Notes: generated by a model from the sequence alone, not told the origin. A stretch of 64,000 nucleotides of DNA from an uncultured archaeon (GCA_964545795.1 CAZJGC010000001.1:6585-70584); one strand, 5' to 3'. Shown: positions 2,733 through 58,019, counted from the first letter of the stretch. Numbers and translations are program-made.

Positions 2733-5225
2733 GTGATTGATATGATTAAGTCAATTGAATTTAAAATATTTTCGCCTGAAATGATAAAGAAGATGTCAGT
2801 TGTTGAAATAACAAGGCCTGAACTCTATGATAACGATGGTTTCCCCATAGAAAACGGAGTTATGGATCCAAAACTTGGAGTTATTGACCCGGGCATGAGA
2901 TGCAGAACATGCGGAAACACTGTTGGAGATTGTCTTGGGCATTTTGGGCACATAGAACTTGTGAAACCTATAACTCATGTTTTATATATAAAGACAATAT
3001 ACAAATTGCTTAAAATTACATGCAGGGAATGCGGCAGATTGCTTTCAAAGGAAAAGAAACCTGTCAAGAAATGCAGACATTGCGGGGCTGAGCAGGGCGA
3101 TATAAAACTTGAAAAGCCGACTACAATAATTGAAAACAAAAAAGTTCTTAATCAGATAAAAATAAGAGAGAGGTTGGAAAAAATACCTGATGAGGATTTG
3201 GAGGAAATAGGTTTTAGAGGAGGGAGGCCTGAATGGCTGATTCTAACTGTATTTCCTGTTCCTCCTGTGACAATGAGACCTTCTATAACGCTTGAAACAG
3301 GAAACAGAAGCGAAGATGACCTTACGCATAAGCTTGTTGACATAGTAAGAATAAATCAGTTGCTAAAGGAAAACATTATGATTGGCGCTCCTGATTTCAT
3401 TATTGATGACTTATGGGAGCTTCTCCAGTATCATGTATCCACATTCTTTGACAATGAAATAACAGGAGTTCCGCATGCAAGCCATAGGTCAGGAAGACCT
3501 TTGAGAACTCTTGCGCAGAGATTGAAGACAAAAGACGGAAGGTTCAGACAGAACTTGACAGGAAAAAGAGTTAATTTTTCATCAAGAACAGTTATCTCTC
3601 CTGACTGCAATATAAGCATTAATGAAGTTGGAGTTCCGCTTGTAGTGGCTAAAGTTGTTACAGTTCCTGTTGTTGTGAATAAGAACAATATAGAATATTT
3701 AAGGAAACTTGTTTCTAATGGCGAGACATGGCCTGGAGCAAGCTATGTAATAAGGCCTGATGGAAGAAAAAAGAAAATAACATCAGAAAATGCAAGCGAG
3801 ATAGCGTCAGAGATTGATGTCGGTTATGTTGTGGAAAGGCATTTGCAGGATGGAGACATAGTATTGTTCAACAGACAGCCATCGCTTCACAGAATGAGCA
3901 TTATGGCTCATCATGCGCGCATAACTCCTTGGCGGACATTTACATTGAATCTTTCTGTATGCGCTCCATATAATGCTGATTTTGATGGAGATGAAATGAA
4001 TTTGCATGTGCTTCAGACAGAAGAAGCGCGAGCGGAAGCAATAATGCTTATGGAGGTTCAGAGGCACATACGTTCTCCAAGGTTCGGAGGTCCTATAATT
4101 GGTTGTTCTCAAGACCATATTTCAGGAACATACATGCTTACAAGAAAGACTACAAAATTATCCCGTGAGGAAGTTTTCCAGATTATGTCAGAAATAGGAG
4201 CAGATGTTGAGGTTCCAGACAAAAAAACATTTACAGGAAAAGAAGTATTCAGCCTTATATTGCCTAAGGGGCTTAACATGGAGTTCAAGGCAAAGGCATG
4301 CAGGGGATGCAGGGCATGCAAGAAAACATCATGCGAATATGATGCGTATGTTTCAATAAAGAATGGACAGTTGAAAACAGGGTTAATAGATAAAAAAGCA
4401 ATAGGAGGAGAACATGGAAAAATTATTGATGTAATAGAAAAAACATATGGCACAGAAGTTGTTCACAGATTCATAGATAAAGTTGGTCTTCTTGGAATTA
4501 AGTATCTGTTGAAAACAGGATTTACCTTTGGATTAGATGATATTGATATATCTGAACATTCTGTAAATGAAATAAAGGAAAAGGTAAATGAATTAAAGAA
4601 GGATGTTTCAGTTGTGATATCTGATGCTGAGAAAGGAAAGGTTGAACTGATTCCGGGAAGAAATGCAAGAGAGAGTGTTGAGACGCATATAATGCGCATT
4701 CTTTCAAAGTCAATGGATGCTGCCGAGTCAGTGATATCCAAAGAACTGGTAGAAAACTGCGCAGTAGTTATGGCGCGTTCCGGAGCAAGAGGAGGAATTG
4801 CGCACCTTGTCCAGATGGCTGGTTTGGTTGGTCAGGAAAAGGTGCTTGGAGAAAGAATACATAGAGGATACTTTAACAGAACTCTTTCGCATTTCAGGCA
4901 GGATGAACTTTCTCCTGAGGCTCATGGATTTGTTACAAACTCTTATAAATCTGGTTTGAATGTTTTTGAGTTCTTCTTTAATTCAATGTCTGGTCGTGAG
5001 AACCTGATGGACAAGTCATTGAAGACAAAGCATTCTGGATACTTGGAGAGAAGGCTTATGAATGCATTGCAGGACTTGAGGGTTGAATATGATATGACAG
5101 TCAGAGATAACAGGGGAGTGATTATACAATTTAAGCCGGGAGAAGATGGAATAGACCCTGCAAAATCTGAGTGGGGAATGCTTGATGTAAGAACTATAAT
5201 TCAGAATATGATGAATAAGCAGTAG
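2733..5225 (+). CDS. rpoA1: DNA-directed RNA polymerase subunit A'
   Basis: 830 aa. N-terminal Zn-ribbon ([17 protein letters not shown]) and the catalytic [10 protein letters not shown] motif; sits between rpoB and rpoA2. Confidence 0.92.
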
Positions 5226-11434: not shown

Positions 11435-11803
11435 CTATTTCAGTTTTTCATATAATTTGTCCACAGTTCTTTTGTCAATTCTTTTTCCAAAACATTTATG
11501 CGGCACAAGAGCCCCTGAGAAAGTTTTTGGTATATGCAAAAGTTCATGTATAAGGGTTTTGTCCTGCTGTTCTTTGTTAAATGAGTCAAATCTTTCTGAC
11601 AAAACTTCTATTATATAGTGGGGTTCTATGGAAAGGGCTTTCTGCCATATTTTTGGGAATGACCATATTCTTGCGTTTGCTTTGCTTTTTGAGTTGTAAG
11701 AACGAAAGCATATTATTTTGCCAGGGTCTATGTGTTTAAATTCAAGTTTTTGTATAATTTCTTCAATTCTTTTTTTAATATCTTCTGCCAACTCAAGTTT
11801 CAT
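11435..11803 (-). CDS. putative metal-dependent hydrolase (HEXXH; COG1451/SprT-like)
   Basis: The internal Met at 11803 avoids overlap with rpl15p. HELLH motif near the C-terminus. The longer 183-aa ORF overlaps the L15 start and is unlikely to be real. Confidence 0.5.
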   Translation of the reverse strand: MKLELAEDIKKRIEEIIQKLEFKHIDPGKIICFRSYNSKSKANARIWSFPKIWQKALSIEPHYIIEVLSERFDSFNKEQQDKTLIHELLHIPKTFSGALVPHKCFGKRIDKRTVDKLYEKLK

Positions 11804-11908
11804 GATATTAAATGGGTGTAAGAAAGATTTATAAACGTTGTTTCTAAATGATAGCAATAAAAGAATATAAATATAAAAATTCATTGAATCTAAAAACAGG
11901 TGAAAGAT

Positions 11909-12316
11909 ATGACGGCAAGATTCAGAAAGAAAACAAGCAGGCAGCGCGGCAGCAAAACTCATGGCTGGGGCGCTAAGAAAAAGCATCGCGGAGCAGGTTC
12001 CAGAGGAGGTCGCGGTCAGGCAGGGTTAATGAAGCATAAAAAATCATGGATGATTAAAAATGACCCAAATCATTTTGGAAGAATTGGATTCAAGAAACCT
12101 GAAAGGAAAAAACCTTGCAGCATAAATCTTATAGAACTTGACAGCATGGAAGGCAATGAATTTGATTTGAGAAAATTAGGTTATGACAAGCTTCTTTCAA
12201 GAGGCAATATAACGCGGCCAATTACAGTAACTGTAGAGAGCGCAACTCCCAAGGCAATAGAGAAAATAGAAAAGGCTGGAGGAAAGGTTGTAATTCTTGA
12301 CAGCGTTCAGGAATAA
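11909..12316 (+). CDS. rpl15: 50S ribosomal protein L15 (uL15)
   Basis: Basic Gly-rich N-terminus (GRGQAGLMKHKK). An AGGTGA RBS-like sequence lies upstream of the ATG at 11909. Followed by secY, the conserved spc-operon tail order. Confidence 0.85.
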   Translation: MTARFRKKTSRQRGSKTHGWGAKKKHRGAGSRGGRGQAGLMKHKKSWMIKNDPNHFGRIGFKKPERKKPCSINLIELDSMEGNEFDLRKLGYDKLLSRGNITRPITVTVESATPKAIEKIEKAGGKVVILDSVQE

Positions 12317-19517: not shown

Positions 19518-20258
19518 ATGAACATAGAAGCAATTCTTAAGAAGGTTGGGTTAACAGACAATGAAGTTAAGGTTTATAAACATCTTCTAATTCTGGGCGA
19601 AACTACTGCAAGCAAATTAGGAAAAGAGACAGGGATAGAAAGAAGAACAGTTTATGATATTGTTCAGAAACTGCTCAGAATGGGTTTGGTTTCTTTTATT
19701 GAAAAGGATAATAAAAAATATTATAAGCCAATAAATCCGTATAAGTTTGTTGATATTCTTGAAGAAAAAGAAGAACACTTAAGGAAAATTAGACATGAGT
19801 TTGAAAAAATGGTTCCGGAATTGGAAGAACTGATAAAATGAAATGATAGAAATGTTGATGCAAGAATTCTTTTTGGCAAGGAAGGAATAAAAACAATGTA
19901 TATGGATGAAATAAAGAAGGGCAAAGTGGTTTATGTAATCTGCACGGCAATTGATAAAACAGAAGAATTATTAAAGAACTTTCTTCCAATGTATACAAGA
20001 GAAAGAATTAAAAGAAAAGTAAAACTTAAGATTTTGTCTTCAAAAAAAGATATAGGACTTTTAAAACAGTACAAATTAGTTGAGATTCGCTCTTTGCCTG
20101 AAGAATATGTTTCTCCTGCAAGTTTGACAATTTACAGGGACAAATTAGGAATAACTTTATGGGCAGAAAATCCAATAACGGTTTTAATAAAAAATAAAGA
20201 AATAACAAGAAATTTTCTCAATTATTTTAAATTAATATGGAAGGCTGTTGGAAAATAA
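19518..20258 (+). pseudogene. TrmB-family transcriptional regulator interrupted by an in-frame TGA at 19839-19841
   Basis: N-terminal wHTH (ORF 19518-19841) and a C-terminal domain (ORF 19896-20258) share one frame. Read through, they give a ~246-aa TrmB-length protein. Confidence 0.5.
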
Positions 20259-20548
20259 AGCAGATATTAAATCTTTTTTATAGTAGCAACAGATAAATAT
20301 ATTGTATGAAGAGACGTTTTATTGTTTTTTCAGAAACGAAAAAAATGCACAGAAAAGCGATTATCTGAAAGTAGACGTACAGAACAAGAATAACAGATAT
20401 TATGATATGCTATTAGTTTATATAATCTGGATATCTTTTTGCACTTTTCTCATACTCTTCTATTGCTTTTTTATAATATAATTCCATCCTAACGCCCATT
20501 TTATTTTTTTAATTTTTTTCTGCAAGAATTTTTCAAATTTTTCACCTT

Positions 20549-20974
20549 TTATTTTTTCATAATATTTAAAAAATTTGGATTAGTGTGAGAAACAATATCT
20601 GCGAATTGAATAATACGAGCTTCAGGGCTCTTAGGAAATTCTAGCTTGTCATGCATTTCAATACAATAAAGGACTTTTTTAATTAATTTATCTTCAAAAC
20701 CATGCTTTTTCATTATTATTTTTGCTTCATTTAAACCACTGTTTACATGATTATTAGGATCAATAATATAACCAATATCATGAAGTATGGCAGATAAATG
20801 GACAACATCTCTATCAACATTTAAAATCTTAGCCAGCCTAAGTGCAAAATCTTTAACGATGCACAGATGATATTTGTAAAACCATTCAAACCCACAATAG
20901 TCCATATCAGCCTTATTGAATTTGTTTTCAACTTCTCTCTCAACACTTTTTATTTTTTCTATCACATATATCAA
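20549..20974 (-). CDS. HD-domain phosphohydrolase
   Basis: 141 aa with the H...HD...H...D pattern (LSAILHDIGY). Confidence 0.7.
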   Translation of the reverse strand: MIYVIEKIKSVEREVENKFNKADMDYCGFEWFYKYHLCIVKDFALRLAKILNVDRDVVHLSAILHDIGYIIDPNNHVNSGLNEAKIIMKKHGFEDKLIKKVLYCIEMHDKLEFPKSPEARIIQFADIVSHTNPNFLNIMKK

Positions 20975-21026
20975 CGCTTTGAATTTTTTTGAACATATTT
21001 TAATAATTTGTCATAATTTTCTAAAA

Positions 21027-21389
21027 ATGATTTTGATTCATTACTTATTAAATAAATTAAATTCTGATTTGATAAAAAATATCTATAGATTAAATAACGA
21101 ATTTGAGGACATGGATATCACACTATATGGTATTGACGTCATAAATACTGGAATTAAATCTAATTCTTTACTGGGTATTTTATTTCTAAATATTTTTGAA
21201 AATAGTAGGCTCCTTTATAAAACGAAAGATTTTAAATTATTTATACAGCAATTAAATGATATAGCTGAAAAGAATAGAGAATTTAATGAAAAATATAAAG
21301 AATTAGGAAGAAGCTATGCTATGATAAAAGATATTATGAATTTTATAAAGAAAAGTGTTTTATTAGAAAATTATAATATTGACGTATAA
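21027..21389 (+). CDS. hypothetical protein (low confidence; AT-rich ORF)
   Basis: Internal Met of the 20916-21389 ORF; the longer form overlaps the HD gene. No motifs. Confidence 0.2.
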   Translation: MILIHYLLNKLNSDLIKNIYRLNNEFEDMDITLYGIDVINTGIKSNSLLGILFLNIFENSRLLYKTKDFKLFIQQLNDIAEKNREFNEKYKELGRSYAMIKDIMNFIKKSVLLENYNIDV

Positions 21390-21551
21390 CTTTTATAATT
21401 AATAGAATGCTCAATGGCTTAAATTGTGGTTTTGTATGCGATAAAACAGAATTCCTATGTGTTAATGAGTTGATGCCCGTTTGAAATATGTATTAAAATA
21501 GAAAAATTAAATAATTAAATATATTTAACATATAACGGTTTTATGATATTT

Positions 21552-22523
21552 ATGGGAAGAGAGTTTTTAATAAAATCCGAAGAAGCATCTACTATAGGTA
21601 GTTATCCCGGAGCAAGAAGTATAGAGAAGTTGCTGCAGGCAGGTATTATTGTATTGGATAAACCATCAGGCCCCTCATGCCGCATTGTTGATTCTTATGT
21701 TAAAAAGATTCTAAATATTGAGAAATGTTCTCATGGAGGCACTCTTGACCCAAGAGTTACAGGAGTTCTTGTATTAGCTTTAGGAAATGCAACAAAATTA
21801 ATGCCGATATTGTTAAACAGCAGAAAAGAGTATATTGCGCTAATGCGGCTGCATAAAGATGTCCCCGAAGAAAAGGTAAGGAGCGTTTGCAATAAATTCG
21901 TAGGCAAAATAATGCAGAAACCTCCAAAAAAGTCGGCGGTTGCAAGAAAGGAAAGGGAGAGAGAAATATACTATCTTGAGATTCTTGAGATATCAGGCAG
22001 GGATGTTCTTATGAAAGTTGGTTGCGAGGCAGGCACATATATACGCAAGTTATGCTCTGATATTGGAGAGAATCTTGGCGGCGCGCATATGCAGGAGTTA
22101 AGGAGAGTTAGTTCTGGCTGTTTTGATGAGAGCAAGGCTGTTAAATTAGAAGATTTAAAGGATGCTTATGAGTTCTGGAAACAGGGAAATAAAGAATATA
22201 TTAAAAGCATGCTGTATCCAATGGAAAAAATTGCAGACAATATGAAAGTTGTTATTATAAAGGATTCTGCTGTTTCAAATATCGCAAACGGCGCACCTCT
22301 TGGCGTCAATGGAATATGCAGAATAGAGAGAGGAATAAAGAAAGGCGATGTTGTGGGAATGTTGACTTTGAACGGCGAATTTGTGGCTTTTGGAAATGCT
22401 GTTATAGATGTTGACAAGATAGACAGAAGGAAGAAACAAATAATTATAAAAACAGATAAAGTATTAATAGGAAAAGATTCAATTGATATCTACAAGGCTG
22501 TTTGCAATGAAAGGAAAAAATAA
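21552..22523 (+). CDS. cbf5: tRNA/rRNA pseudouridine synthase Cbf5 (H/ACA RNP catalytic subunit)
   Basis: TruB catalytic motif (HGGTLDPRVTGVL) and a C-terminal PUA domain. Confidence 0.85.
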   Translation: MGREFLIKSEEASTIGSYPGARSIEKLLQAGIIVLDKPSGPSCRIVDSYVKKILNIEKCSHGGTLDPRVTGVLVLALGNATKLMPILLNSRKEYIALMRLHKDVPEEKVRSVCNKFVGKIMQKPPKKSAVARKEREREIYYLEILEISGRDVLMKVGCEAGTYIRKLCSDIGENLGGAHMQELRRVSSGCFDESKAVKLEDLKDAYEFWKQGNKEYIKSMLYPMEKIADNMKVVIIKDSAVSNIANGAPLGVNGICRIERGIKKGDVVGMLTLNGEFVAFGNAVIDVDKIDRRKKQIIIKTDKVLIGKDSIDIYKAVCNERKK

Positions 22524-35990: not shown

Positions 35991-36182
35991 ATGAGCCAAG
36001 AAGATGTGTTAAATATTTTGAAAGATTTAAAAGGGGAAGCCACTAGTAAGCAGATAAGAGAGATTGCAAAAAAGAGATTCCCTTATAGAACTCTTTATCT
36101 CTATGTTAATAATCGCTTAAAGAAATTGGAGAAAAATAAAAAAGTTAAAAAGGAAGGAGAAAAATGGAAGATAATACAATAA
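35991..36182 (+). CDS. small winged-helix DNA-binding protein (paralog of the upstream gene)
   Basis: 63 aa; overlaps the MTase start. Confidence 0.5.
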   Translation: MSQEDVLNILKDLKGEATSKQIREIAKKRFPYRTLYLYVNNRLKKLEKNKKVKKEGEKWKIIQ

Positions 36183-36946
36183 AAAATCTGTTAGAAAAAT
36201 ATCATATTAAAGATATGGGTAGTTGGGAAAATGTTAATGCAGATTTAATTATTACTGATCCACCATTTGGAATAGAATTTAGTGGTAAAAATGGAAACTA
36301 TCACAGAAATGGAGATAATGTAGTTGATGGATATGTTGAATGGAAAGTTGAAGAATACGCAGATAAAATAAGGCAATTATTAGAAACTATTAAAAAGAAT
36401 CTAAAAGAAAATGGACAATCTTTAATCTTCTCTGGTTGGAACAATAGCAATATCATTCATAATGAAATTTTAAAATTTAAAGGATTAACATTAAGGGGCA
36501 AAATGTATTGGGCTTATAATTTTGCTCCTGCGTGTAAATTAAGACCTGCTCATAATGTTTATGAAATCTTTTGGGTAACAAAAGGGGAAAAATGGCATTA
36601 TCATAAAAGATGCTCCACGATACACTGCGATAAAGGAGAACCAAATTTAACAACACTGATATTTAAAAGAGATTATAAAATGAATATGCCAAAATATCCT
36701 ACGAGATTACCATTTAAGCTGCTTCAATGTCTTTTAGAACATTTTTCAAACGAAAAAGATTTGATATTTGACCCTCTTGCTGGGAGTGGAATGTTGGGCG
36801 TTGTCGCTTATATGCTTAAGAGAAACTTTTTATTAGGGGATTTAAATAAAAATGGTAAAATTGTTTTTAAAGCATTATTAGATTATTATTTAAATAAAAA
36901 TGGTCTTGCTCAAGATCAAAAATTAATGACTTGGTGGAAAAAATGA
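36164..36946 (+). CDS. DNA methyltransferase, beta-class amino-MTase (N4-C or N6-A)
   Basis: Motif IV DPPF (IITDPPFG) precedes motif I (FDPLAGSGM). This permuted order is typical of beta-class MTases. Confidence 0.8.
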   Translation: MEDNTIKNLLEKYHIKDMGSWENVNADLIITDPPFGIEFSGKNGNYHRNGDNVVDGYVEWKVEEYADKIRQLLETIKKNLKENGQSLIFSGWNNSNIIHNEILKFKGLTLRGKMYWAYNFAPACKLRPAHNVYEIFWVTKGEKWHYHKRCSTIHCDKGEPNLTTLIFKRDYKMNMPKYPTRLPFKLLQCLLEHFSNEKDLIFDPLAGSGMLGVVAYMLKRNFLLGDLNKNGKIVFKALLDYYLNKNGLAQDQKLMTWWKK

Positions 36947-37632
36947 AGAAAGAAGAATTTTTGAAAATTGCAAAAGAAATTGCAGAAGGATTTAAAGATA
37001 TTCCTACATTATGGGACGGAAGAAAATCTATTTTAGAAATGAAAGAAGCAGGGTTTCCTCATTGGAGGCAAATGGAATGGATTGGTTGGTATTTTCAATT
37101 TTTGTGTGAAAAATTATTAAAAGATAAATTAGAAATACCAGGACCCAAATATGGTAATGTTGAATTTGATGGATTTAAAGTAATTCCTTGGGATTTTAAA
37201 GCTCATGCAATAAATACAAGCAGTCATAAAATCATTGTTAATGATAGTGAAGCAACATCAAAAGGTATTAAAGAATTTGGAAGTGTTGGACTAATCTTGG
37301 CCATGGGAGAAGTAAAATATAATGATGATGAGAGGACTTTTCAAAAATGGCATGAAGAATTAAAAGGCGGTAAATCTAAATATGAACTAGAAAGAATTAA
37401 AAGAGGAGCTTGGTCTAGATTAAGAAAAGTTGAATTTAAATTAGAGCAGATTTCTTTTATAAAAATAGATGATTCTGTTTTAGTTAAATGTGGCTCATTT
37501 CAAAGAGATTTTAGAAACTCTAATGGAACTCCAAGACGAGAAAAAGTTTTATTAGATTTAGAAAAATTAGATGAAGAAATTGTGTTTTTCTTAGATTTTA
37601 AACCAAAATCAAACCAGAAGAAGTTAAAATAA
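36931..37632 (+). CDS. putative restriction endonuclease partner of the MTase (hypothetical)
   Basis: 233 aa; overlaps the MTase stop by 16 nt (operonic). Possible PD-(D/E)xK-like D...DFK residues, not confirmed. Confidence 0.4.
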   Translation: MVEKMKKEEFLKIAKEIAEGFKDIPTLWDGRKSILEMKEAGFPHWRQMEWIGWYFQFLCEKLLKDKLEIPGPKYGNVEFDGFKVIPWDFKAHAINTSSHKIIVNDSEATSKGIKEFGSVGLILAMGEVKYNDDERTFQKWHEELKGGKSKYELERIKRGAWSRLRKVEFKLEQISFIKIDDSVLVKCGSFQRDFRNSNGTPRREKVLLDLEKLDEEIVFFLDFKPKSNQKKLK

Positions 37633-37634
37633 AA

Positions 37635-37650
37635 GGACGCCGCCCGTTAG
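37635..37650. repeat. right terminal inverted repeat of R-M cassette (GGACGCCGCCCGTTAG)
   Basis: Inverted copy of 35661-35676, 2 nt after the nuclease stop. Confidence 0.4.
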
Positions 37651-37946
37651 AAAAATCTTTGGGTAAGCATTGTGAACCGCTTAACCAATGTTAGATAAAG
37701 TTGCGAAGCAATTTTATTTTTTCTCTTTTGTTTTGTTGAGGTTAAGCGAAGGATTTTTCTTTTGATAAAGCAACCCCTCAATTTAGGGGTGGGTGGTGGG
37801 GGTTTTAGAGTTCGTTCTAACTTCTCCGTTCGTTCCACTCACTACGACCCTTTGAGATGCGCCAAAACTCCTTTTAAGGCATAAGATAGAAAAAATATTT
37901 ATAAAATTCTACTGAATATTTATCATTAAGAGAGGTTGAAATATAG

Positions 37947-38810
37947 ATGATAGACAAAAAGATTGAAAAAAACAAATCACAAATAAAAGAAACTATAATT
38001 TGTTTAATTTGTGTTATAATTTTCTTTGTTTTAATATATTATTTATATATTTTACTGTGTCCATTAATATTGTTTTCTTCTGTTACTGTTTCATTTCTTG
38101 TAATTATGTTTTATGAATTAATAAGAAACAAACTATATAAAAAACAATATCATAATGCTAACATTATTTTTTCATATCTGTTTCTGTTATCTTCTTTAAT
38201 ATTATTTGTTTCAATCTTATTTTTGTCTTTTCCAAATCAACCAGAAGGAAGAAATCTTACTCATCAGAATGTAAGTTTTGATATTTATATTATAAACCAT
38301 ATTTTCACAAAAGAGGATGTATTTAATTATATAAAAGAAGCAAACAAAATTTGGAATAAATATAATATTTCAATTTTGGCAGATGACATTTATTTTAAAG
38401 ATATTAATCTTTCTCGCGAGGAGATACAATACTTGTTTACAAAAGTAAATAATTCTAAGGAAGAGAATGAAGAATGTATAGAATATTTGCATATTCTTTC
38501 TAAATTTGTTAATAACGATAAAAAACTAAAAATTATTTTTTTAGATAATTTAGGAAGTAATATAAGGGGAAGGGGTTGTCTTTGTGGTTGTAGTTTTGCA
38601 ATAGTTGCTCCAGATAAATTATTTACTGATTTTACAGGGTGGGATCTTGCACACGAAATAGGGCATATATTGAATCTATATGATATTAATGAAAATATTA
38701 AAATGAATCTGATGAACAATCGACATAAACCTTTGTTTTTAAAATCAGATTATTTGTCGCAAGAGCAAGTTAACAACGTAACTAAAAAGGCTATAAGTTT
38801 GAACACATGA
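37947..38810 (+). CDS. membrane-anchored putative zinc metallopeptidase (HEXXH)
   Basis: Two N-terminal TM helices and a DLAHEIGHIL motif. Confidence 0.55.
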   Translation: MIDKKIEKNKSQIKETIICLICVIIFFVLIYYLYILLCPLILFSSVTVSFLVIMFYELIRNKLYKKQYHNANIIFSYLFLLSSLILFVSILFLSFPNQPEGRNLTHQNVSFDIYIINHIFTKEDVFNYIKEANKIWNKYNISILADDIYFKDINLSREEIQYLFTKVNNSKEENEECIEYLHILSKFVNNDKKLKIIFLDNLGSNIRGRGCLCGCSFAIVAPDKLFTDFTGWDLAHEIGHILNLYDINENIKMNLMNNRHKPLFLKSDYLSQEQVNNVTKKAISLNT

Positions 38811-38857
38811 AGTACTATTTTTGATATTTTATATAATAATTGTGGAAAGTGTTTAAA

Positions 38858-39271
38858 ATGCCAAATGAAATTTTTATAAGTTTGAAGCCGAAATTTGCAG
38901 AACTTATCAGGCAAAGAAAAAAGACGCATGAATTCAGGTCATACAAGCCGCGATATAAAATTAACAGGTTCTGGATTTATGTGACGCAACCGATAGCATT
39001 GCTAAAATATGTTGCGGAAGTTGGAGAACCAGCAGAGTATCCGGAAAAAATTCCTGAAACAGGCATAGGAAACAGGGAATTTAATAAAGGTTTGAAGACT
39101 TCTAATTATGCTTTTCCAATATTGCATTTATATGAATTAAAACAGCCTATATCTTTGCAAAAACTAAAAGAGAAATTTGGTTTTGCACCGCCTCAAAGTT
39201 TTGCTTACATCAATAGATATAAATCTCTTGCAGAATGCGTGAGAGCCTCTGGCTTAAGAAGGATATTCTGA
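38858..39271 (+). CDS. ASCH-domain protein
   Basis: GxKxxExR-like motif (RKKTHEFR) near the N-terminus; ~137 aa. Confidence 0.5.
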   Translation: MPNEIFISLKPKFAELIRQRKKTHEFRSYKPRYKINRFWIYVTQPIALLKYVAEVGEPAEYPEKIPETGIGNREFNKGLKTSNYAFPILHLYELKQPISLQKLKEKFGFAPPQSFAYINRYKSLAECVRASGLRRIF

Positions 39272-39615
39272 ATTAATTTATATTCTCCTTATATTCTCCA
39301 GCATATAGATTTAATATTCAATTATACTATAAAATGGCACTAAACAAGTATTCTGGCAAATATATTTTCTTTTGTAAAAATGCTTTTTATCCCTGAAATT
39401 AAAAAGGAAATATGAGAGAGAAAAGGGGCAGGTGTCTGCAAAAAAGCGATTTTGACGAGCATGGAAATTTGATATGGAAAGGCGACTTATGCATTGATGT
39501 GGAAGCAGTAAAGAAATTTAACAGAAAAAACAAATTATGAAAACTCTCTTTTACAGCAGTATATGCTTCTGATGCGACCAAAAGATTTATAAGTTGTTTT
39601 TCTTATAAGATAGTC

Positions 39616-41823
39616 ATGAATTTTGTAAAACTTCCAAAGCATCTGAGCAAAGACAGCGTCAAAGAAGTTGGCGGAAAATCAGCGAATCTTGCAGAATTAA
39701 TAAACAACGGATTTCCTGTTCCCGAGTGTTTTTTTGTGACTGTTAACGCTTATAGGGAGTTTTTGAAAGAAGCGGGGCTTGAAAATAAAATATTGGAAAT
39801 GGTTGATTCAATTGATTTTGAGAATGTGTCATCTCTTCAGGAGACTTCGCAGAATATAAAGGCTCTTATAACTAATGCAAAAATGCCTGAGAAAATAGAA
39901 CAGGAAATAAAATCAATATATAAAGCGCTTGTATCAGCAGTAGGTTCTTCTCTTGTTGCTGTGCGCTCTTCTGCAGTAACAGAAGATGTGAAAGGAGCTT
40001 CTTCCGCAGGTCAGCAGGAAACTTTCTTGAATGTGTCTGGCGGAGACGAAGTTGTCAATTCCGTAAAAAAATGCTGGGCTTCTTTGTTTAATGCAAGGGC
40101 AATATATTACAGGCATAAGCACAATCAGGAAAAAAATCCGGGCATAAGCGTTATTGTTCAGAGAATGATTGAAAGCAAGAAAAGCGGAATTATGTTTACA
40201 GTAAACCCCTCAAACCCTGAAAACAAGGATATAACAATAGAAGCATGCTGGGGACTTGGAGAAACTATTGTGCAGGGTGAAGTTATACCTGACAGGTATG
40301 TAGTTGATAAAAATACAGGAAGAATTATTGAAATTAATATAGGAAAGAAAGGCATACAAAGAGTGCTTGAATCAGACAAGACAGTAAAACAAAAAGTCAG
40401 TGAAGACATGGTTGAGAAGCAGGTTTTAACAACCAATGAAATTGTAACTCTGGCAGAATATGGAAAAAGAATAGAAGAGCATTATGGAGTGCCGCAGGAT
40501 ATTGAATATGGGATTGATGATAAAATATACATACTTCAGTCAAGGGCAATTACGTTTTTAGAATCTAAAGAAAAAAGCGATGTTGAGAATGAGGGAGAAG
40601 TTCTTGTGAAAGGACTTACCGCGTCTCCGGGCATTGCAACAGGCCCTGTAAAGATTATAACAAAACTTTCCGAGGCAGGAAAAGTCAATAAAGGCGATAT
40701 TCTTGTTACAGAAATGACATCTCCTGATTTTGTGCCTGTAATGGAGAAGTCGGCAGCCATTGTAACTGACAAAGGAGGTTCTACATGCCATGCTGCCATT
40801 GTTTCAAGGGAATTGGGAATACCATGCATAGTTGGAACAACAAACGCAACGCAGGTATTGAAAGAAGGAGAAATTGTTACTGTTGATGCAGACAAAGGCG
40901 TAGTATTCAAAGGAGTTGTAAAAGTTCATGAACAAAAGACAGACGCCTCAAATGAAAAAACAAAAACAAAAATAAAACTTAATATTGCATTTGCTTCAAC
41001 TGCCAAGCAGGAATTTGCCGAGAAGTCTGATGGAGTTGGACTTGTGAGAATTGAGCATATGCTGACAGAAGAAGGGATTCATCCGATGGAATATATAAGA
41101 ATGGGAAGAAGCCAAGAACTTACAGACATTCTGGTCAGAGAAATAGGAAAAATAGCGGAAGTTTTCAAAAACAAGCCTGTATGGGTGCGGACCCTTGATG
41201 CAAGAACTGATGAATATAGGCATATGAAAGGCGGTGAAAATGAGCCTAAGGAAGACAACCCCATGCTTGGATGGCATGGAATAAGAAGAAGCCTTGATGA
41301 GCCGGAAACAATAAAATGCGTTTTTTCTGCTGTAAAGAAGCTTCATGAGCAGGGATTAAAAAATATTGCTTTAATGTTGCCATTTGTTATAAGCGCATCT
41401 GAAGTCAGAAAAACTAAAGAACTTGCAAGAGAATTTGGTTTGCCTGACTCAGTCAAGTTCGGAGTTATGGTGGAAACACCTGCCGCTGCATTGACTATAG
41501 AAGATATATGCAAAGAAGGAATTGATTTTATTTCTTTCGGTTCAAATGACTTGTCCCAGCTTGTGCTTGGCGTGGACAGAAATAATGAGAAATTATCAAA
41601 GCTTTTTAATGAAATGCATCCCGCCATGTTGAAATTATTTGAAATGGTAATTAAAACATGCAAAAAATACAATGTTGAAACAAGCATCTGCGGAGAGGCA
41701 GGTTCAAATCCTGAAATGGTAAAGAAACTTATTGAGTTTGGCATTGATTCAGTTTCCTGCAATATTGATGCTATTGATAAAATACGGCATGCTGCGGCAG
41801 AAGCAGAACATAACTTGATGTAA
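39616..41823 (+). CDS. ppsA: phosphoenolpyruvate synthase (pyruvate, water dikinase)
   Basis: N-terminal ATP-grasp PPDK domain, phosphohistidine domain (GGSTCHAAIVSRELGIPCIVG), C-terminal PEP-utilizing TIM barrel. Confidence 0.8.
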   Translation: MNFVKLPKHLSKDSVKEVGGKSANLAELINNGFPVPECFFVTVNAYREFLKEAGLENKILEMVDSIDFENVSSLQETSQNIKALITNAKMPEKIEQEIKSIYKALVSAVGSSLVAVRSSAVTEDVKGASSAGQQETFLNVSGGDEVVNSVKKCWASLFNARAIYYRHKHNQEKNPGISVIVQRMIESKKSGIMFTVNPSNPENKDITIEACWGLGETIVQGEVIPDRYVVDKNTGRIIEINIGKKGIQRVLESDKTVKQKVSEDMVEKQVLTTNEIVTLAEYGKRIEEHYGVPQDIEYGIDDKIYILQSRAITFLESKEKSDVENEGEVLVKGLTASPGIATGPVKIITKLSEAGKVNKGDILVTEMTSPDFVPVMEKSAAIVTDKGGSTCHAAIVSRELGIPCIVGTTNATQVLKEGEIVTVDADKGVVFKGVVKVHEQKTDASNEKTKTKIKLNIAFASTAKQEFAEKSDGVGLVRIEHMLTEEGIHPMEYIRMGRSQELTDILVREIGKIAEVFKNKPVWVRTLDARTDEYRHMKGGENEPKEDNPMLGWHGIRRSLDEPETIKCVFSAVKKLHEQGLKNIALMLPFVISASEVRKTKELAREFGLPDSVKFGVMVETPAAALTIEDICKEGIDFISFGSNDLSQLVLGVDRNNEKLSKLFNEMHPAMLKLFEMVIKTCKKYNVETSICGEAGSNPEMVKKLIEFGIDSVSCNIDAIDKIRHAAAEAEHNLM

Positions 41824-50029: not shown

Positions 50030-52438
50030 ATGGCAGATAACATGAATCAATCTAAAAGGTATGAACCAGGAGAAGTTGAGCCAAGAATACAAAAATTCTG
50101 GGAAGATAATGAATTGTTTAAATTTGACCGATGCAGCAACAAGCCTGTTTTCTCAATAGACACGCCGCCTCCTACAATTTCCGGACTAATTCATATGGGT
50201 CATACAATGAGTTATAATCAGGCTGAGTTTGTTGCCAGATTCTGGAGAATGATGGGTTATAATGTTTTCTATCCCATGGGTTTTGATGACAACGGCCTTC
50301 CAAGCGAACGTTATGTAGAAAAGAAACTTAATATAACAGCGAATAAAATGCCAAGGCATGAGTTTGTGAAACTATGTTTAGAAGAAACAAAAAAAGGTGC
50401 AGAACAATTTAAAAATGTCTGGAGAGAGCTCGGTATATCTGTTGACTGGTCATTGTCTTACAGCACAATAAACAAGTTGAGCCAAAGGATATCGCAAAAG
50501 TCATTTCTTGATTTATATAACAAAAATAGAGTTTACAGGGCTGAAGCTCCTGTAACTTGGTGCCCAACCTGCCAGACTGCTGTTGCGCAGGCAGAACTTG
50601 AAGATAATGAAAGAGAGTCATTCTTTAATTACATAAAATTTGATGTAGACAACGGAGAAACAATAACAATTGCTACAACAAGACCGGAATTAATGCCTGC
50701 GTGCGTTGCTGTGTTTGTCCACCCTGATGATGAAAGATATAAGAAATTCGTAGGAAGAAAAGTGAAACTGCCTTTCTTTGGAAGAGAAGTTCAGATTTAT
50801 GCAAATGAGTCTGTTGACATGGAATTTGGCACAGGCGCTGTTTATCACTGCACTTTTGGAGACATGGACGATATACACTGGGTGAAAAAGTACAACCTGC
50901 CTATAATAAAAATTATGAACAAGGATGGAACTCTTAATGAAAATGCGGGAAAATACAAAGGCATGAAATCTGAACAGGCAAGAAAGCAAATTTTGGAAGA
51001 CTTAAAAGCTGAAGGCAGGGTTGAGAAGCAGGAAAAAATCAGGCAGGTTGTTAATGTTCATGAGCGTTGCGGAACTCCTGTTGAATTTATTATGTCTGTT
51101 CAGTGGTTCATAAAAATTCTTGACATGAAGGAAAAATTGCTTGAACTTGGAAATCAGATAACATGGCACCCCGCTCACATGAAAATAAGATATGAACAAT
51201 GGGTGCAGGGATTGAATGCAGATTGGCTCATATCAAGGCAGAGATTTTTCGGAGTGCCTTTCCCTGTATGGTACTGCAAAAAGTGCGGCAGCATAATTCT
51301 TGCAGAGGAAAGCGAGCTTCCTGTTGACCCTGCTTATTCAAAACCAGATAGAAATTGTTCATGCGGTTCCTCTGATTTTGAACCGGAAAGAGACGTGATG
51401 GATACATGGGCAACATCATCTGTAACACCGCTCATAAACGGGAAATGGAAGGAAGAAGATTCAATGTTAGATAAAATATATCCTATGTCTCTGAGACCTC
51501 AGGCGCATGACATAATCAGGACATGGGCATTCTACACAATAGCAAAGTGTTATATGAATACAAATCAGATACCATGGAAGACTATTATGATTTCAGGACA
51601 TGGACTTGACCCTCATGGAAAGAAAATGTCAAAGTCAAAGGGAAATATTGTAGAACCTTTGCCTGTAAAAGAAAAATACTCCGCCGATGCGCTAAGGTTC
51701 TGGTCAGCTTCGGCAAACCTTGGCGAAAATCTTCCTTATCAGGAAAAAGATGTTGCCACGGGACAGAAACTGCTTACAAAACTATGGAATGCTTCAAGGC
51801 TTGCCGGAAAATACTTGGACAACAAAAAACCTGATGATTTGAAAATTATAGACAAGTGGTTGCTTAGCAAACTAATGAAGCTTGTAAGGTTTTCAACTGA
51901 ACGTTTTAAAGTTTGCGAATATGGCAGGGCAAAACTGGAAACAGAAATATTTTTCTGGCATGAGTTTGCTGACAATTATCTTGAGATGGTAAAATATAGA
52001 TTGTATGAAGGCAGTGACCAGTCGGCAAAATACACTCTTTACATAAGTCTGTTGACATTGTTAAAGCTGTTTGCCCCAATTATTCCGCACATAACTGAAG
52101 AAATTTATCAAATTTATTTTAGAAACAGGGAAAAAGAGATTTCCATACATATTTCAAAATGGCCTGAAGTTGATGAACAATTGATAAATGAAGAAGCAGA
52201 AGAGATTGGAGAAATGGCAAAAGAAATAATTTCTGCGTTGCGACAGTATAAAAGTTCGCGAAAACTTGCTTTAAACACAGAGTTGAAGAAAATTACTATT
52301 GAATGCGATGAAGAAGCAAAAAGAAAAATTCAGCAAGTTGCGCCTGATATAAAAGGCACAATGAAAGTCAAGGAAATAGAATTTGGAAAGGCAGATGAAA
52401 TTGAAGTTGGAAAAATAAGGATTAACGTAGAAAGATAG
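50030..52438 (+). CDS. valS: valine--tRNA ligase
   Basis: Class I motifs (PPPTISGLIHMGH, KMSKSKGN). The 802-aa length fits archaeal ValRS better than IleRS or LeuRS. Confidence 0.7.
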   Translation: MADNMNQSKRYEPGEVEPRIQKFWEDNELFKFDRCSNKPVFSIDTPPPTISGLIHMGHTMSYNQAEFVARFWRMMGYNVFYPMGFDDNGLPSERYVEKKLNITANKMPRHEFVKLCLEETKKGAEQFKNVWRELGISVDWSLSYSTINKLSQRISQKSFLDLYNKNRVYRAEAPVTWCPTCQTAVAQAELEDNERESFFNYIKFDVDNGETITIATTRPELMPACVAVFVHPDDERYKKFVGRKVKLPFFGREVQIYANESVDMEFGTGAVYHCTFGDMDDIHWVKKYNLPIIKIMNKDGTLNENAGKYKGMKSEQARKQILEDLKAEGRVEKQEKIRQVVNVHERCGTPVEFIMSVQWFIKILDMKEKLLELGNQITWHPAHMKIRYEQWVQGLNADWLISRQRFFGVPFPVWYCKKCGSIILAEESELPVDPAYSKPDRNCSCGSSDFEPERDVMDTWATSSVTPLINGKWKEEDSMLDKIYPMSLRPQAHDIIRTWAFYTIAKCYMNTNQIPWKTIMISGHGLDPHGKKMSKSKGNIVEPLPVKEKYSADALRFWSASANLGENLPYQEKDVATGQKLLTKLWNASRLAGKYLDNKKPDDLKIIDKWLLSKLMKLVRFSTERFKVCEYGRAKLETEIFFWHEFADNYLEMVKYRLYEGSDQSAKYTLYISLLTLLKLFAPIIPHITEEIYQIYFRNREKEISIHISKWPEVDEQLINEEAEEIGEMAKEIISALRQYKSSRKLALNTELKKITIECDEEAKRKIQQVAPDIKGTMKVKEIEFGKADEIEVGKIRINVER

Positions 52439-52443
52439 TTTAA

Positions 52444-52452
52444 TTTTAAATA
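52444..52452 (+). promoter_or_regulatory. TATA-box-like element (TTTTAAATA) ~25 nt upstream of the SRP RNA 5' end
   Basis: AT-rich octamer at the expected archaeal distance from the first paired base of the RNA. Confidence 0.3.
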
Positions 52453-52474
52453 CTTCCAATATTAAAATATTTTT

Positions 52475-52752
52475 AGCAGGAGAATAGACCGGGTTGTTCG
52501 GCGTAACCTGTAACCCGAAATCGTCGTTATGCGGGGGTCGAAGTCTGGGAGCGCTTGCAGAAGTCTGTGAAGGCCTGCAATTCAACTGAGAAGCTTCGTC
52601 TTCTGGAGCTGTGGCTATAGTGAACCGACCCAGGTCCGGAAGGAAGCAAGTCTAATCTATAGTTACGGCGTTCAGAAGGTTGCGGAGTGGAGGCGAGTTG
52701 CAGGACTACCTTCGCAGGTTTTTGCCGGCAATCTCAGATGCTTCTCCTGCTA
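52475..52752 (+). ncRNA. ffs: signal recognition particle RNA (7S/SRP RNA)
   Basis: ORF-free, GC-rich ~280-nt island. It contains the universally conserved domain-IV motif CCAGGUCCGGAAGGAAGCA. A terminal helix closes it (5' GCAGGAGAA pairs with 3' UUCUCCUGC). Confidence 0.7.
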
Positions 52753-54921: not shown

Positions 54922-54983
54922 AATTGGTGCTCCCGATGGGACTTTCAAAACAGGAAAAAACGGAATCCATGCTCTTCCTTAAG

Positions 54984-55013
54984 GATAAGGGGTTGCATGT
55001 TCTGGACAGCCCC
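54984..55013. repeat. hairpin repeat unit GATAAGGGGTTGCATGTTCTGGACAGCCCC (copy 1, inside the tRNA-Glu intron)
   Basis: 30-mer with a GGGG...CCCC stem; second copy 56 nt downstream. Confidence 0.6.
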
Positions 55014-55039
55014 GCTTTTCATGCTCTTCAATGGGGGTT

Positions 55040-55069
55040 GATAAGGGGTTGCATGTTCTGAACAGCCCC
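55040..55069. repeat. hairpin repeat unit copy 2 (GATAAGGGGTTGCATGTTCTGAACAGCCCC)
   Basis: 29/30 identical to copy 1. Confidence 0.6.
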
Positions 55070-55087
55070 TTATTTTGAACCCATGTC

Positions 55088-55408
55088 TCAAGCTCGAGAG
55101 GCTTGAATCCTTGACCGGACTAGACGACGGGAGCGTTTTTTTGTTGTTAAAACAGATTCCATGGTTTTTGTTATTGACCTCTGAGAGATTTTTATCATAA
55201 TAAATGCTATAACAACAACTATAAATGTTATAATTGTTGCAGCAATGAATTTATATATAACGCCTTCACCTGAAGGCACAAGACTATTTATAAATGCCTG
55301 CATTGCATCTCTCCAGCTAAGCGCCACCAAAAAACCAAGAGCAGTTATAATTGAACCTATTATAATATTTTTGAGATTCATTCTTTCTACATCTTCCTGA
55401 AATGTCAT
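55088..55408 (-). CDS. hypothetical membrane protein; C-terminal 47 nt overlap the tRNA-Glu 5' exon
   Basis: 106 aa, 2-3 TM. The basic tail KKRSRRLVRSRIQASRA is encoded by tRNA sequence, so the true stop/extent is doubtful. Confidence 0.35.
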   Translation of the reverse strand: MTFQEDVERMNLKNIIIGSIITALGFLVALSWRDAMQAFINSLVPSGEGVIYKFIAATIITFIVVVIAFIMIKISQRSITKTMESVLTTKKRSRRLVRSRIQASRA

Positions 55409-55416
55409 GACAACAC

Positions 55417-55556
55417 CTTATTAAAATGGTGAGCCCGGAGGGATTCTCATAACCCTTAATTTGAACCCCCGACTTACTGGTCCGAAGCTTCGACTTAAAT
55501 AATCAGTCGCTTTAGACCAAAAATGCTTTTGTCTGTCCAGGCTGAGCCACGGGCCC
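55417..55556 (-). tRNA. tRNA (isotype unresolved) with a 16-nt insertion in the T-loop and a 15-nt insertion in the anticodon arm; CCA encoded
   Basis: Minus strand: acceptor GGGCCCG/CGGGCUC (one G-U). D-loop AGCCUGG... T-stem GGGGG/CCCUC, with UUCAAAU then UAAGGGUUAUGAGAAU before the 3' stem. A + CCA + T-run. The anticodon region CGACU-GAUUAUUUA-AGUCG plus the GUCGAAGCUUCGGAC hairpin did not resolve into a canonical 7-nt loop by eye. Confidence 0.5.
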
Positions 55557-57360: not shown

Positions 57361-57394
57361 AAATCTTTTAATAGATTAAAAATTATTTAAAGTA

Positions 57395-57425
57395 GGGGAC
57401 TGCGCAATAAATGCAATCCCCTACA
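57395..57425. repeat. hairpin repeat unit GGGGACTGCGCAATAAATGCAATCCCCTACA (copy 1)
   Basis: 31-mer with a GGGGA...TCCCC stem; second copy at 57494. Confidence 0.55.
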
Positions 57426-57430
57426 ACCCC

Positions 57431-57480
57431 AATAAGGGAAAGTGCAGAGCATGAATTTCCTTAACAACCCTTAGTAAAGG
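57431..57480. repeat. ectopic copy of the tRNA-Leu T-loop intron sequence (47/50 identical to 57666-57715)
   Basis: AATAAGGGAAAGTGCAGAGCATGAATTTCCTTAACAACCCTTAGTAAAGG lies 57 nt upstream of the tRNA-Leu 5' end, outside any tRNA exon context. Confidence 0.6.
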
Positions 57481-57493
57481 AGTATGCAAAAAC

Positions 57494-57524
57494 GGGGACT
57501 GCGCAATAAATGCAATCCCCTACA
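57494..57524. repeat. hairpin repeat unit copy 2
   Basis: Identical 31-mer except the last bases; ends 13 nt before the tRNA-Leu 5' end. Confidence 0.55.
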
Positions 57525-57536
57525 TTGCAGAAACAT

Positions 57537-57735
57537 GCGGGGGTCGCCAAACAGTCTTTCTCTAAATGAGAAGGGCTGGACAAAGCCAGGTCAAAGGTGC
57601 TAGGTTGAGGGCCTAGTTGGTAAAGTTTACAAAAAACTTCAACAATAGTCCATTCGTGAGTTCAAAATAAGGGAAGGTGCAGAGCATGAATTTCCTTAAC
57701 AAGCCTTAGTAAAGAAAGTCTCACCCCCCGCACCA
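57537..57735 (+). tRNA. tRNA-Leu(GAG) with insertions in the D-loop, variable region and T-loop; CCA encoded
   Basis: Acceptor GCGGGGG/CCCCCGC. UC, then GCC D-stem, a ~34-nt insertion, then AGCCAGGUCAAA-GGU. Anticodon arm CUAGG-UUGAGGG-CCUAG (G37). Oversized variable region. T-stem GUGAG/CUCAC, with UUCAAAA then a 52-nt insertion before the 3' stem. Discriminator A + CCA + T-run. Confidence 0.65.
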
Positions 57736-57743
57736 TATTTGAG

Positions 57744-58019
57744 TTATTTTTTATATATTTCCTCAATTACTTCTTTGCCAGAATCAGTCAGTTTAAGATA
57801 TACTGGTTTCCCGGAAGGATTAATTTGCTTAACATATTTTTCTTCAATTAATAAGTCAATATGTTTCTTTATAGCAACATGAGTTAAATTGAGTTTCTTA
57901 GATATAACATTCAAAAAACAAGGATTATTCTTTTTTTCACATTCATATAAAAATTTTATAATTTTTCTTCTAGTATCGGCTCCTTTGCTCCAGTAGAAAA
58001 GTATTGATTTTGATAGCAT
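57744..58019 (-). CDS. winged-helix transcriptional regulator
   Basis: 91 aa; wHTH pattern (FLNVISKKLNLTHVAIKKHIDLLIEEKYV). Confidence 0.55.
   Translation of the reverse strand: MLSKSILFYWSKGADTRRKIIKFLYECEKKNNPCFLNVISKKLNLTHVAIKKHIDLLIEEKYVKQINPSGKPVYLKLTDSGKEVIEEIYKK

Follow-up and report, generated by a model that had tools for sequence, protein, structure and literature searches.

Can a tRNA gene that is broken in three places, and that standard gene finders do not see, still be a working gene? The question is raised by a 199-nucleotide (nt) locus at positions 57537-57735 (+) of a 64,000-nt stretch of DNA from an uncultured archaeon (GCA_964545795.1, CAZJGC010000001.1:6585-70584), where a tRNA-Leu(GAG) gene is interrupted by three insertions; the whole of this stretch is called the window below, and positions are counted from its first letter. 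Our reading, which we consider very probable on comparative grounds, is that the locus encodes a functional tRNA-Leu(GAG) and that its three introns would be removed by the archaeal endonuclease/ligase pathway. ARAGORN called 0 tRNAs in the unspliced window, and an Rfam search at permissive thresholds, including E<=10, returned the archaeal signal recognition particle (SRP) RNA only and no tRNA. Upon in silico excision of 57551-57584 (34 nt), 57622-57645 (24 nt) and 57667-57718 (52 nt), ARAGORN called an 89-nt tRNA-Leu(GAG) with 23/23 stem pairs and a mature T-loop of UUCAAAU; the call was absent when none, one or two of the three segments were excised. These results bear out a preliminary description of the stretch, which had recognized a tRNA-Leu(GAG) with insertions of about 34 nt in the D-loop, of an oversized segment in the variable region and of 52 nt in the T-loop, and had described the acceptor, anticodon arm and T-stem as canonical. 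It had the T-loop insertion begin after UUCAAAA; the size stands, but the boundary follows UUCAAA, at 59/60.

The gene begins with the acceptor strand GCGGGGG and ends CCCCCGC-A73-CCA, with the CCA encoded, and its anticodon arm CTAGG-TTGAGGG-CCTAG is intact. All parts lie on the + strand. Exon 1 (57537-57550) carries the acceptor 5' strand, U8, C9, the D-stem 5' strand GCC, A13 and A14; exon 2 (57585-57621) holds the remaining D-arm, the anticodon arm (GAG, G37) and the start of the variable arm, UUGGU; exon 3 (57646-57666) holds the remaining variable arm, the T-stem 5' strand GUGAG and the T-loop UUCAAA; and exon 4 (57719-57735) holds U60, the T-stem 3' strand CUCAC, the acceptor 3' strand, A73 and the CCA. 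Intron 1 (57551-57584) is in the D-loop at 14/15, intron 2 (57622-57645) is in the loop of the long variable arm (UGGU/.../UAGUCCA), and intron 3 (57667-57718) is in the T-loop. The insertion boundaries were fixed independently through gap-free colinearity with intron-less orthologs, with which exon 1 is also colinear; runs of A beside the D-loop insertion leave its boundary uncertain by up to 2 nt, and the 3' end of exon 1 may lie 1-2 nt further left. A T6 run at 57747-57752 (+), 12 nt past the CCA end, is a plausible candidate for an archaeal oligo-T terminator.

Uninterrupted 89-nt tRNA-Leu(GAG) genes stand divergent from Elp3 in two related loci (L001 and L002), in the same position as the window gene, which likewise adjoins a divergent Elp3 gene. 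The exon 2 22-mer GGTGCTAGGTTGAGGGCCTAGT is common to the window and the orthologs, and a metagenome scan with a 22-nt exon pattern yielded the intron-less orthologs L084, L085, L087 and L088; other Elp3 loci supplied two further intron-less tRNA-Leu(GAG) genes (L093 and L095), while the Elp3 relatives P0002, P0005, P0006 and P0011 showed no synteny on the tRNA side. Aligned with these eight intron-less orthologs, the spliced window tRNA is gap-free, with 71-82/89 identity and 23/23 stem pairs. It differs from L001 at nine positions, six of which make up three double changes (48:58, 63:77 and 65:75), one a G.U to G-C change and two loop positions. Chance cannot be the origin of this cloverleaf, given its 23/23 stem pairs and its 71-85/89 identity to orthologs. 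Stem differences among the orthologs are overwhelmingly compensatory, and the exons have thus been kept by selection, as those of a pseudogene would not be. Decay to a pseudogene, in which three unrelated insertions would have inactivated a former tRNA-Leu gene so that it makes no tRNA, is thus very improbable to us; it would account for the failure of ARAGORN and Rfam to see the unspliced locus, for the imperfect D-loop and T-loop splice motifs and for the repeat copies near the gene, which hint at insertional activity, but not for flawless exons whose differences from orthologs are compensatory.

A protein search found two closer relatives of the flanking Elp3, L090 (NCBI GCA_964461015.1; 74% identical) and L091 (83% over a partial Elp3). 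L090 is syntenic with the window (Elp3-DUF1003-DUF5654-DUF362), and its tRNA-Leu(GAG) gene is 216 nt long with three insertions. One, of 17 nt, is located exactly at the window's variable-arm site (CGGU/.../UAGUCCG), and another, of 78 nt, exactly at its T-loop site (UUCAAA/...AAAGAAAG/UCUCAC), with ends and a first hairpin homologous to window intron 3; the third, of 32 nt, is at 21/22, compared with 14/15 in the window. In L091, an insertion after GCCAA corresponds to the window's D-loop site, and the contig ends inside it. From this distribution, the variable-arm and T-loop introns appear to predate the split from L090, and the D-loop intron appears to be common to the closest relative, L091, only. 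The two spliced products, window and L090, align without gaps at 85/89, and the four differences form two compensatory pairs. Retention of the interrupted state at an Elp3 identity of just 74%, with the exons at 85/89 while the introns have diverged, again argues against decay. A tRNA-Leu(GAG) gene with two introns, at 21/22 and 59/60, is present in an unrelated, higher-GC lineage from freshwater-sediment metagenomes (L083 1734-1898, equal to L086), and L084 is the same tRNA-Leu with one exon base different and zero introns, which points to a very recent intron gain or loss in that lineage.

The variable arm offers a further view of the splice junctions. Its loop UUAGU (spliced positions 51-55; window 57621 plus 57646-57649) is invariant in 10 of the 10 orthologs compared. 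Intron 2 interrupts it behind the first U, such that only the splice 57621/57646 rebuilds it. Archaeal leucyl-tRNA synthetase recognizes the tip of the variable arm, and charging with leucine would therefore depend on exact splicing at UUAGU. The exact rebuilding of an invariant loop is not what a pseudogene would predict; nor is the codon usage of the window, where CUU is the commonest Leu codon (389 of the 1223 Leu codons in long open reading frames [ORFs], with CUC at 44). The same loop bears on the idea that the insertions are retained as expansion segments or that the tRNA is split or permuted and assembled from separate transcripts, which we regard as hardly credible. Nothing specific favors it, beyond the superficial resemblance of an upstream intron copy, described below, to scattered tRNA fragments (PMC3293823). 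The four exons lie in cis in colinear order, none of their sequence occurs in the upstream block, and retained insertions would destroy the invariant variable-arm loop and disrupt contacts between the D- and T-loops. Every tRNA needs these contacts.

In a canonical bulge-helix-bulge motif, each strand provides a 4-nt strand of the central helix and a 3-nt bulge that is cut after its second nucleotide, beside an outer or an inner helix. We scored every junction choice that yields the same mature sequence and judged significance against 5000 shuffles of the intron. A scan for the strict motif across the whole tRNA-Leu gene gave many chance matches, and the motif is informative only at junctions defined by homology. 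Bulge-helix-bulge folds at the three junction pairs, which the preliminary description had proposed as a check, were found in part: a strict motif at the variable-arm intron, a relaxed one at the T-loop intron and a weak one at the D-loop intron. At intron 2, the central helix is 4/4 Watson-Crick, with two 3-nt bulges (GU/A and AA/U) and a 6-bp inner helix, and 0/5000 shuffles equaled its score; lacking an outer helix, it falls into the relaxed HBh' class. The unrelated 17-nt intron at the identical site in L090 has the same core motif, present in its minimum-energy fold, and the central helix covaries between the two, an exon U to C change from window to L090 being matched by an intron A to G change.

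At intron 3, the T-stem serves as the outer helix (5/5), the 3' bulge is AG/U and the central helix UUCA/AGAA pairs at 3/4; the inner helix is set apart from the central helix, which places the motif in the relaxed hBH/BHL class. The junction UUCAAA/...GA(A/G)A(G/A)/U recurs at 59/60 in tRNA-Leu, in two neighboring window genes (tRNA-Glu and tRNA-Arg, both described below) and in L090 tRNA-Leu, each time with the T-stem as outer helix and a central helix of 3-4/4, and the 59/60 intron of L083 tRNA-Leu (UUCGAA/...GGAA/U) has an hBH motif with 4/4 central pairing. An 11-bp hairpin (57552-57578) occupies intron 1 from 1 nt past the 5' site up to 6 nt short of the 3' site; the inner helix (8/8) is in exact register for both cut sites. 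The motif of intron 1 is nevertheless the weakest of the three, with a central helix of only 2/4 (C.A, G-C, C.A, C-G).

The two neighboring genes, which lie about 2 kb from tRNA-Leu and had gone unmentioned in the preliminary description, came from a custom scan of the window for acceptor complementarity, a T-arm and an encoded CCA. The tRNA-Arg(UCG) gene (55427-55556, -) has three introns: a 21-nt one within the region of the D-stem, a 15-nt one at 30/31 and a 16-nt one in the T-loop at 59/60; the tRNA-Glu(CUC) gene (54925-55134, -) has one 132-nt intron at T-loop 59/60, which contains two tandem copies of a 39-nt hairpin module. Both genes are invisible to ARAGORN and Rfam as encoded, and ARAGORN calls them only after in silico splicing. 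All three Arg introns have a 4/4 central helix and 3-nt bulges at junctions defined by tRNA homology alone; the Glu intron has the central helix UUCA/UGAA (4/4), with the T-stem as its outer helix, and the central helix is thus 4/4 at the 59/60 junction of both genes. These four introns serve to validate the motif test within the same genome. We rejected an alternative placement of the second Arg intron at 31/32, since with 30/31 the anticodon stem is perfect, the motif reaches 4/4 and the site is conserved in L090, where both the intron and the motif recur. In L090 tRNA-Arg (approximately 3600-3730, +), the D-stem region likewise holds an insertion, but one for which no motif is supported; this gene and L090 tRNA-Glu (approximately 4040-4125, +) are both disrupted, with T-arm introns at 53/54 that end CATGAA/TTCAAAT. 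Across these genes, the intron content changes rapidly while the genes themselves remain intact. A complementary custom scan of the window for tRNA genes of the 53/54 type found no more.

Each of the three tRNA genes found in the window is therefore disrupted, and each has a 59/60 intron. Because all three are interrupted and the Arg introns have strict motifs, we take it from the sequences that the host must splice such introns; that every tRNA gene in the window is interrupted also sits poorly with the decay of one of them. The first 47 nt of tRNA-Glu overlap the 3' end of a mechanically called ORF (55088-55408). By synteny with L090, this is a DUF5654-like gene, and the basic tail at its C-terminus probably stems from read-through into the tRNA.

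Several points weigh against our reading of the tRNA-Leu locus as a functional, spliced gene. Intron 2 has a motif with no outer helix, and G43, which belongs to the anticodon stem, is taken up in the central helix of that motif. That of intron 3 is by itself not significant (797/5000 shuffles), because the T-stem supplies the outer helix automatically, and the motif of intron 1, with its 2/4 central helix, does only modestly better than shuffles, 81/5000 of which score as well. The comparative depth is small, with two related interrupted tRNA-Leu genes, one of them truncated. No EndA or RtcB, and hence no endonuclease or ligase gene, was present among the 30 window proteins scanned. Finally, the analysis covers 64 kb, and a second, uninterrupted tRNA-Leu(GAG) gene may be located elsewhere in the genome.

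We also observed that the body of intron 3 is repeated outside the gene. The intron body (R2b, 57666-57714, +) has an extragenic copy 235 nt upstream (R2a, 57431-57479, +), which is 47/49 identical and was not part of the preliminary description. R2a sits between two identical 31-nt hairpin repeats that are 68 nt apart, R1a (57395-57425, +), 5 nt upstream of R2a, and R1b (57494-57524, +), directly upstream of tRNA-Leu. Neither repeat is expected by chance. R2 is predicted to fold into an 8+4-bp hairpin starting 1 nt past the 5' splice site, and the two differences between R2a and R2b both fall at positions unpaired in that hairpin. The Glu intron holds two related hairpins, as does the L090 Leu intron.

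A covariance model built from five intron copies only, and searched across 138 kb, found eight copies of the module, all of them tRNA-linked: one in the Leu intron (47.5 bits), two in the Glu intron (55.0 and 48.5 bits), two in the L090 Leu intron and three in tandem upstream of tRNA-Leu. Among the last three, R2a scored 41.7 bits (E ~8e-11), R1a 21.1 bits (a rough E of ~4e-4 to 7e-4) and R1b 18.0 bits (a rough E of ~4e-3 to 8e-3). The R1 matches to this intron-trained model are full length and ungapped, with the stem kept, and nothing else in the 138 kb rose above chance except an antisense reading of one palindromic copy. Across nine aligned module rows, 85% of stem cells pair and 4/8 pairs change on both sides, in an alignment that is model-fitted and includes one antisense match as a row. 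The 39-nt consensus is approximately AaaAGGGgcuGUcCAGAACAUGCaacCCCUuAuCAaacc, with copies at window positions 57392-57529, 54979-55073 and 57667-57705 and at L090 1569-1646. The Leu and Glu T-loop introns thus share the module, so that two tRNA genes of different specificity have introns of homologous sequence, and R1 appears to be a diverged member of the same hairpin family.

R1b may also have a role of its own. Its loop AATAAAT (57505-57511) lies at -32 to -26 relative to the mature 5' end, the place expected for a TATA box; the spacing matches that of TTTAAG upstream of the L001 ortholog, and in both cases the sequence continues GCAATCC...TTGCAGAA. R1b may therefore provide the TATA box of tRNA-Leu. 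We had considered R1 as a duplicated promoter only, and revised this since the intron-trained model detects both R1 copies; R1 may be both a module copy and a TATA source. Beside the Elp3 start codon, an AT-rich stretch of 34-39 nt (57361-57394), AAATCTTTTAATAGATTAAAAATTATTTAAAGTA, is conserved in the window, L090 and L091. It probably holds a bidirectional promoter, since in L090 it constitutes the entire Elp3-tRNA intergenic region. Started from this AT-rich promoter, the window tRNA-Leu transcript would gain a 142-nt leader with three hairpin modules.

The R1a-R2a block is absent from L090, where the intergenic region is 39 nt, and from L091, where it is 96 nt with one degenerate R1-like stretch; because it is missing from both, the block appears to be recent. 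The copying would have run from intron to flank, since the L090 T-loop intron is homologous to R2. A tandem duplication of promoter plus gene followed by a deletion was rejected as the origin of the upstream block, as the junction sequences misfit a simple tandem model.

How did the module come to occupy these places? One answer, compatible with splicing, is that the T-loop insertion is not an ancient, diverged intron but primarily a small mobile or duplicating hairpin element at the DNA level, resembling a miniature inverted-repeat transposable element (MITE), housed in parts of the tRNA unit that are discarded (59/60 and the 5' flank) and tolerated as the endonuclease removes it. The eight copies, all tRNA-linked with nothing else in the 138 kb, and the covarying stem are in line with this explanation. 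So is the window Glu gene, which has the module at 59/60, where its L090 ortholog has a different insertion at 53/54, indicating a recent gain; and so is the upstream block, absent from both relatives, with an R2a that is 96% identical to the gene's own intron. Intron families spread across tRNA genes are, moreover, known in Thermoproteales, according to an account of Fujishima et al. 2010 in PMC4090602. Against it, no transposase, integrase or reverse transcriptase was found among the 30 proteins scanned, and neither target-site duplications nor terminal inverted repeats came to light. A 21-mer of R2 had no match in the metagenome collection and R1 had none in the viral collection; we attribute two viral matches to an R2 17-mer to chance, as the surrounding sequence is unrelated and the matches do not extend, and the R2 core is thus absent from both collections. 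The R1 matches are weak, at 18-21 bits with rough E-values, the analysis covers no more than 64 kb of the genome, and the pattern could also stem from local duplication or from gene conversion. We therefore regard a mobile element of this sort as possible, though not the likelier account. The stronger proposal, that the ~39-nt module is a DNA element able to propagate itself, by which tRNA introns in this DPANN lineage are created or extended, and is confined to disposable parts of the tRNA unit (Leu and Glu 59/60 and the Leu 5' flank, with one variant perhaps a TATA source), we put forward as slightly more doubtful again.

A different possibility is that R1a-R2a-R1b form a separate unit, either a small RNA gene, with R1a as promoter and R2a as transcript, or a miniature array like those of clustered regularly interspaced short palindromic repeats (CRISPR), with an intron-matching "spacer". 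The identity of the two 31-nt hairpins is suggestive here, as are the placement of the R1a AATAAAT relative to R2a, which is that of the R1b AATAAAT relative to the tRNA, and the restriction of the R2a/R2b differences to unpaired positions. We discarded the CRISPR array reading, however: such an array has at least three repeats at regular intervals with unique spacers of 25-50 nt, usually accompanied by cas genes, whereas here there are only two R1 copies 68 nt apart, no cas domains in the 30 proteins scanned, and R1 scores as a relative of the intron module. A box C/D or H/ACA guide RNA reading of R2 was also discarded, as R2 has no Rfam match at E<=10 and the boxes (RUGAUGA/CUGA) are absent on reading by eye. 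The interval from R2a to the tRNA lacks a T-run and hence an obvious transcript end, and the absence of the block from the nearest relatives speaks against a conserved function. A separate unit is accordingly improbable in our estimation.

Returning to the functional, spliced gene, we envisage the following course of events. The primary transcript would start upstream, either from the TATA-like AATAAAT of R1b or from the older shared promoter beside Elp3, and would end at the T-run past the encoded CCA. The folding of each intron would place both of its cut sites in short bulges next to a helix, as a bulge-helix-bulge or a relaxed form of it; the archaeal tRNA splicing endonuclease would cut both sites, in an order of intron removal that we can only infer, and an RtcB-type ligase would join the exons. 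The predicted product is an 89-nt class II tRNA reading CUU and CUC. The intron 3 family, built on the 39-nt hairpin module, would have spread among the 59/60 sites of different tRNA genes and into the Leu 5' flank.

The window has a GC content of ~36% and encodes split archaeal RNA polymerase A'/A'', SecY, Cbf5, Trm5, valyl-tRNA synthetase and Elp3. Among species-representative genomes, the nearest relatives of this Elp3 are in DPANN metagenome-assembled genomes labeled Aenigmatarchaeota, Nanoarchaeota, Woesearchaeota and Pacearchaeota, at 57-61% identity. The SRP RNA, the split polymerase and the DPANN relatives mark the host as an archaeon of DPANN type; an exact look-up of the flanking Elp3 and of a 91-aa ORF protein matched no record. 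The archaeal SRP RNA (52477-52749, +; Rfam 171.6 bits) directly follows the valyl-tRNA synthetase gene, and a mechanical ORF that overlaps it on the opposite strand (52271-52585) is probably spurious. Two stretches, 36001-40000 and 20001-22000, have a lower GC content (0.28-0.30, against ~0.36 elsewhere). The 36-38 kb part holds an N6/N4 DNA methylase (36164-36943) followed by ORFs without a Pfam match and is possibly a restriction-modification or foreign island. At 11435-11983 (-), a 182-aa protein matches the Pfam family "putative phage metallopeptidase" (E 1.4e-23) among core genes.

These observations have a practical side. Standard finders (ARAGORN and the Rfam tRNA model) see 0 tRNAs in 64 kb that hold three, and unless intron-aware tools are combined with manual curation, the genomes of this lineage will seem to lack tRNAs, a situation foreseen for DPANN by Kaneta et al. 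2018. To the known cases, the locus contributes a class II tRNA whose variable-arm intron lies at a loop that is invariant among orthologs, and, with its relatives, it provides a natural series for intron gain, movement and loss, from intron-less to two- and three-intron forms, in which positions shift (53/54 versus 59/60, and 14/15 versus 21/22) and a fresh extragenic intron copy appears. The variable-arm intron and the hairpin-module family together offer a useful handle on the spread of archaeal tRNA introns. Were the module indeed self-propagating, it would be a concrete vehicle for the intron "transposition" of archaeal tRNA genes, whose mechanism is unknown, and would supply a class II tRNA case where a 2015 review said that none existed.

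Archaeal tRNA genes with up to three introns are known, mainly from Thermoproteales (PMC3239211, PMC8450103, PMC4390854); three-intron examples include tRNA-Glu(UUC) of Pyrobaculum calidifontis and tRNA-Pro(UGG) of P. islandicum (PMC4390854, PMC8450103). The relaxed motifs hBH, HBh' and BHL are cut by endonucleases with specific loop insertions, and DPANN lineages with such enzymes show increased tRNA disruption, with undetected disrupted genes predicted (PMC5829648). The preliminary description had placed multi-intron tRNAs in a few archaeal clades, which is broadly right, with the addition that disruption had already been linked to DPANN (PMC5829648, PMC3239211). The three-intron Leu gene is itself of an already known kind, and a specialist would expect such genes in DPANN. 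Like the multi-intron genes of Thermoproteales, it has three introns, D-arm and T-loop positions, both strict and relaxed motifs, and introns related across tRNA genes. It differs in that its host is a low-GC (~36%) DPANN archaeon, with relatives labeled Aenigmatarchaeota or Nanoarchaeota, rather than a crenarchaeon; in being a class II tRNA-Leu with an intron inside the long variable arm and none at the canonical 37/38; and in having copies of its intron module outside the gene as well.

Among DPANN, the closest parallel is ARMAN-2 (Candidatus Micrarchaeum), where the 59/60 hBH intron of pre-tRNA-Cys(GCA) is cleaved in vitro by the organism's own endonuclease (PMC3239211). This gene shares with ours the DPANN host, the relaxed hBH motif and the T-stem as outer helix. 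ARMAN-2 tRNA-Pro(GGG) has introns at 53/54 and 59/60 (PMC3239211), the former position being that seen in L090 Arg and Glu. The ARMAN-2 Cys intron is 13 nt long, whereas the T-loop introns here range from 16 to 132 nt and are built on a repeated 39-nt module.

Homologous introns in different tRNA genes of Thermoproteales have been ascribed to "intron transposition", the mechanism of which is unknown (PMC4090602). Insofar as these translocatable introns (Fujishima et al. 2010) are summarized in PMC4090602 and PMC4390854, they resemble the introns shared here by Leu-GAG and Glu-CUC in being homologous and in the same position; going by the same summaries, a class II member and three family members in the 5' flank outside any tRNA distinguish the present case. 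The Caldiarchaeum subterraneum tRNA-Thr locus (PMC3293823) similarly combines intron gain with duplicated tRNA-locus sequence upstream, over a short evolutionary time. There, the duplicated material is a tRNA exon fragment, set apart by a 1.8-kb recombinase-encoding element, whereas here it is intron sequence and a promoter-region hairpin, with no coding element and an extent of only 85-99 nt. Three features go beyond the literature that we found. The first is the placement of an intron within the long variable arm of a class II tRNA, for a literature that does not extend to the primary position catalogues. The second is the sharing, between tRNA genes, of an intron family with a member in a class II tRNA, whereas Kanai 2015 knew of no translocatable intron in class II tRNAs (PMC4390854). 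The third is the presence of intron family members outside any tRNA, in the gene's own 5' flank.

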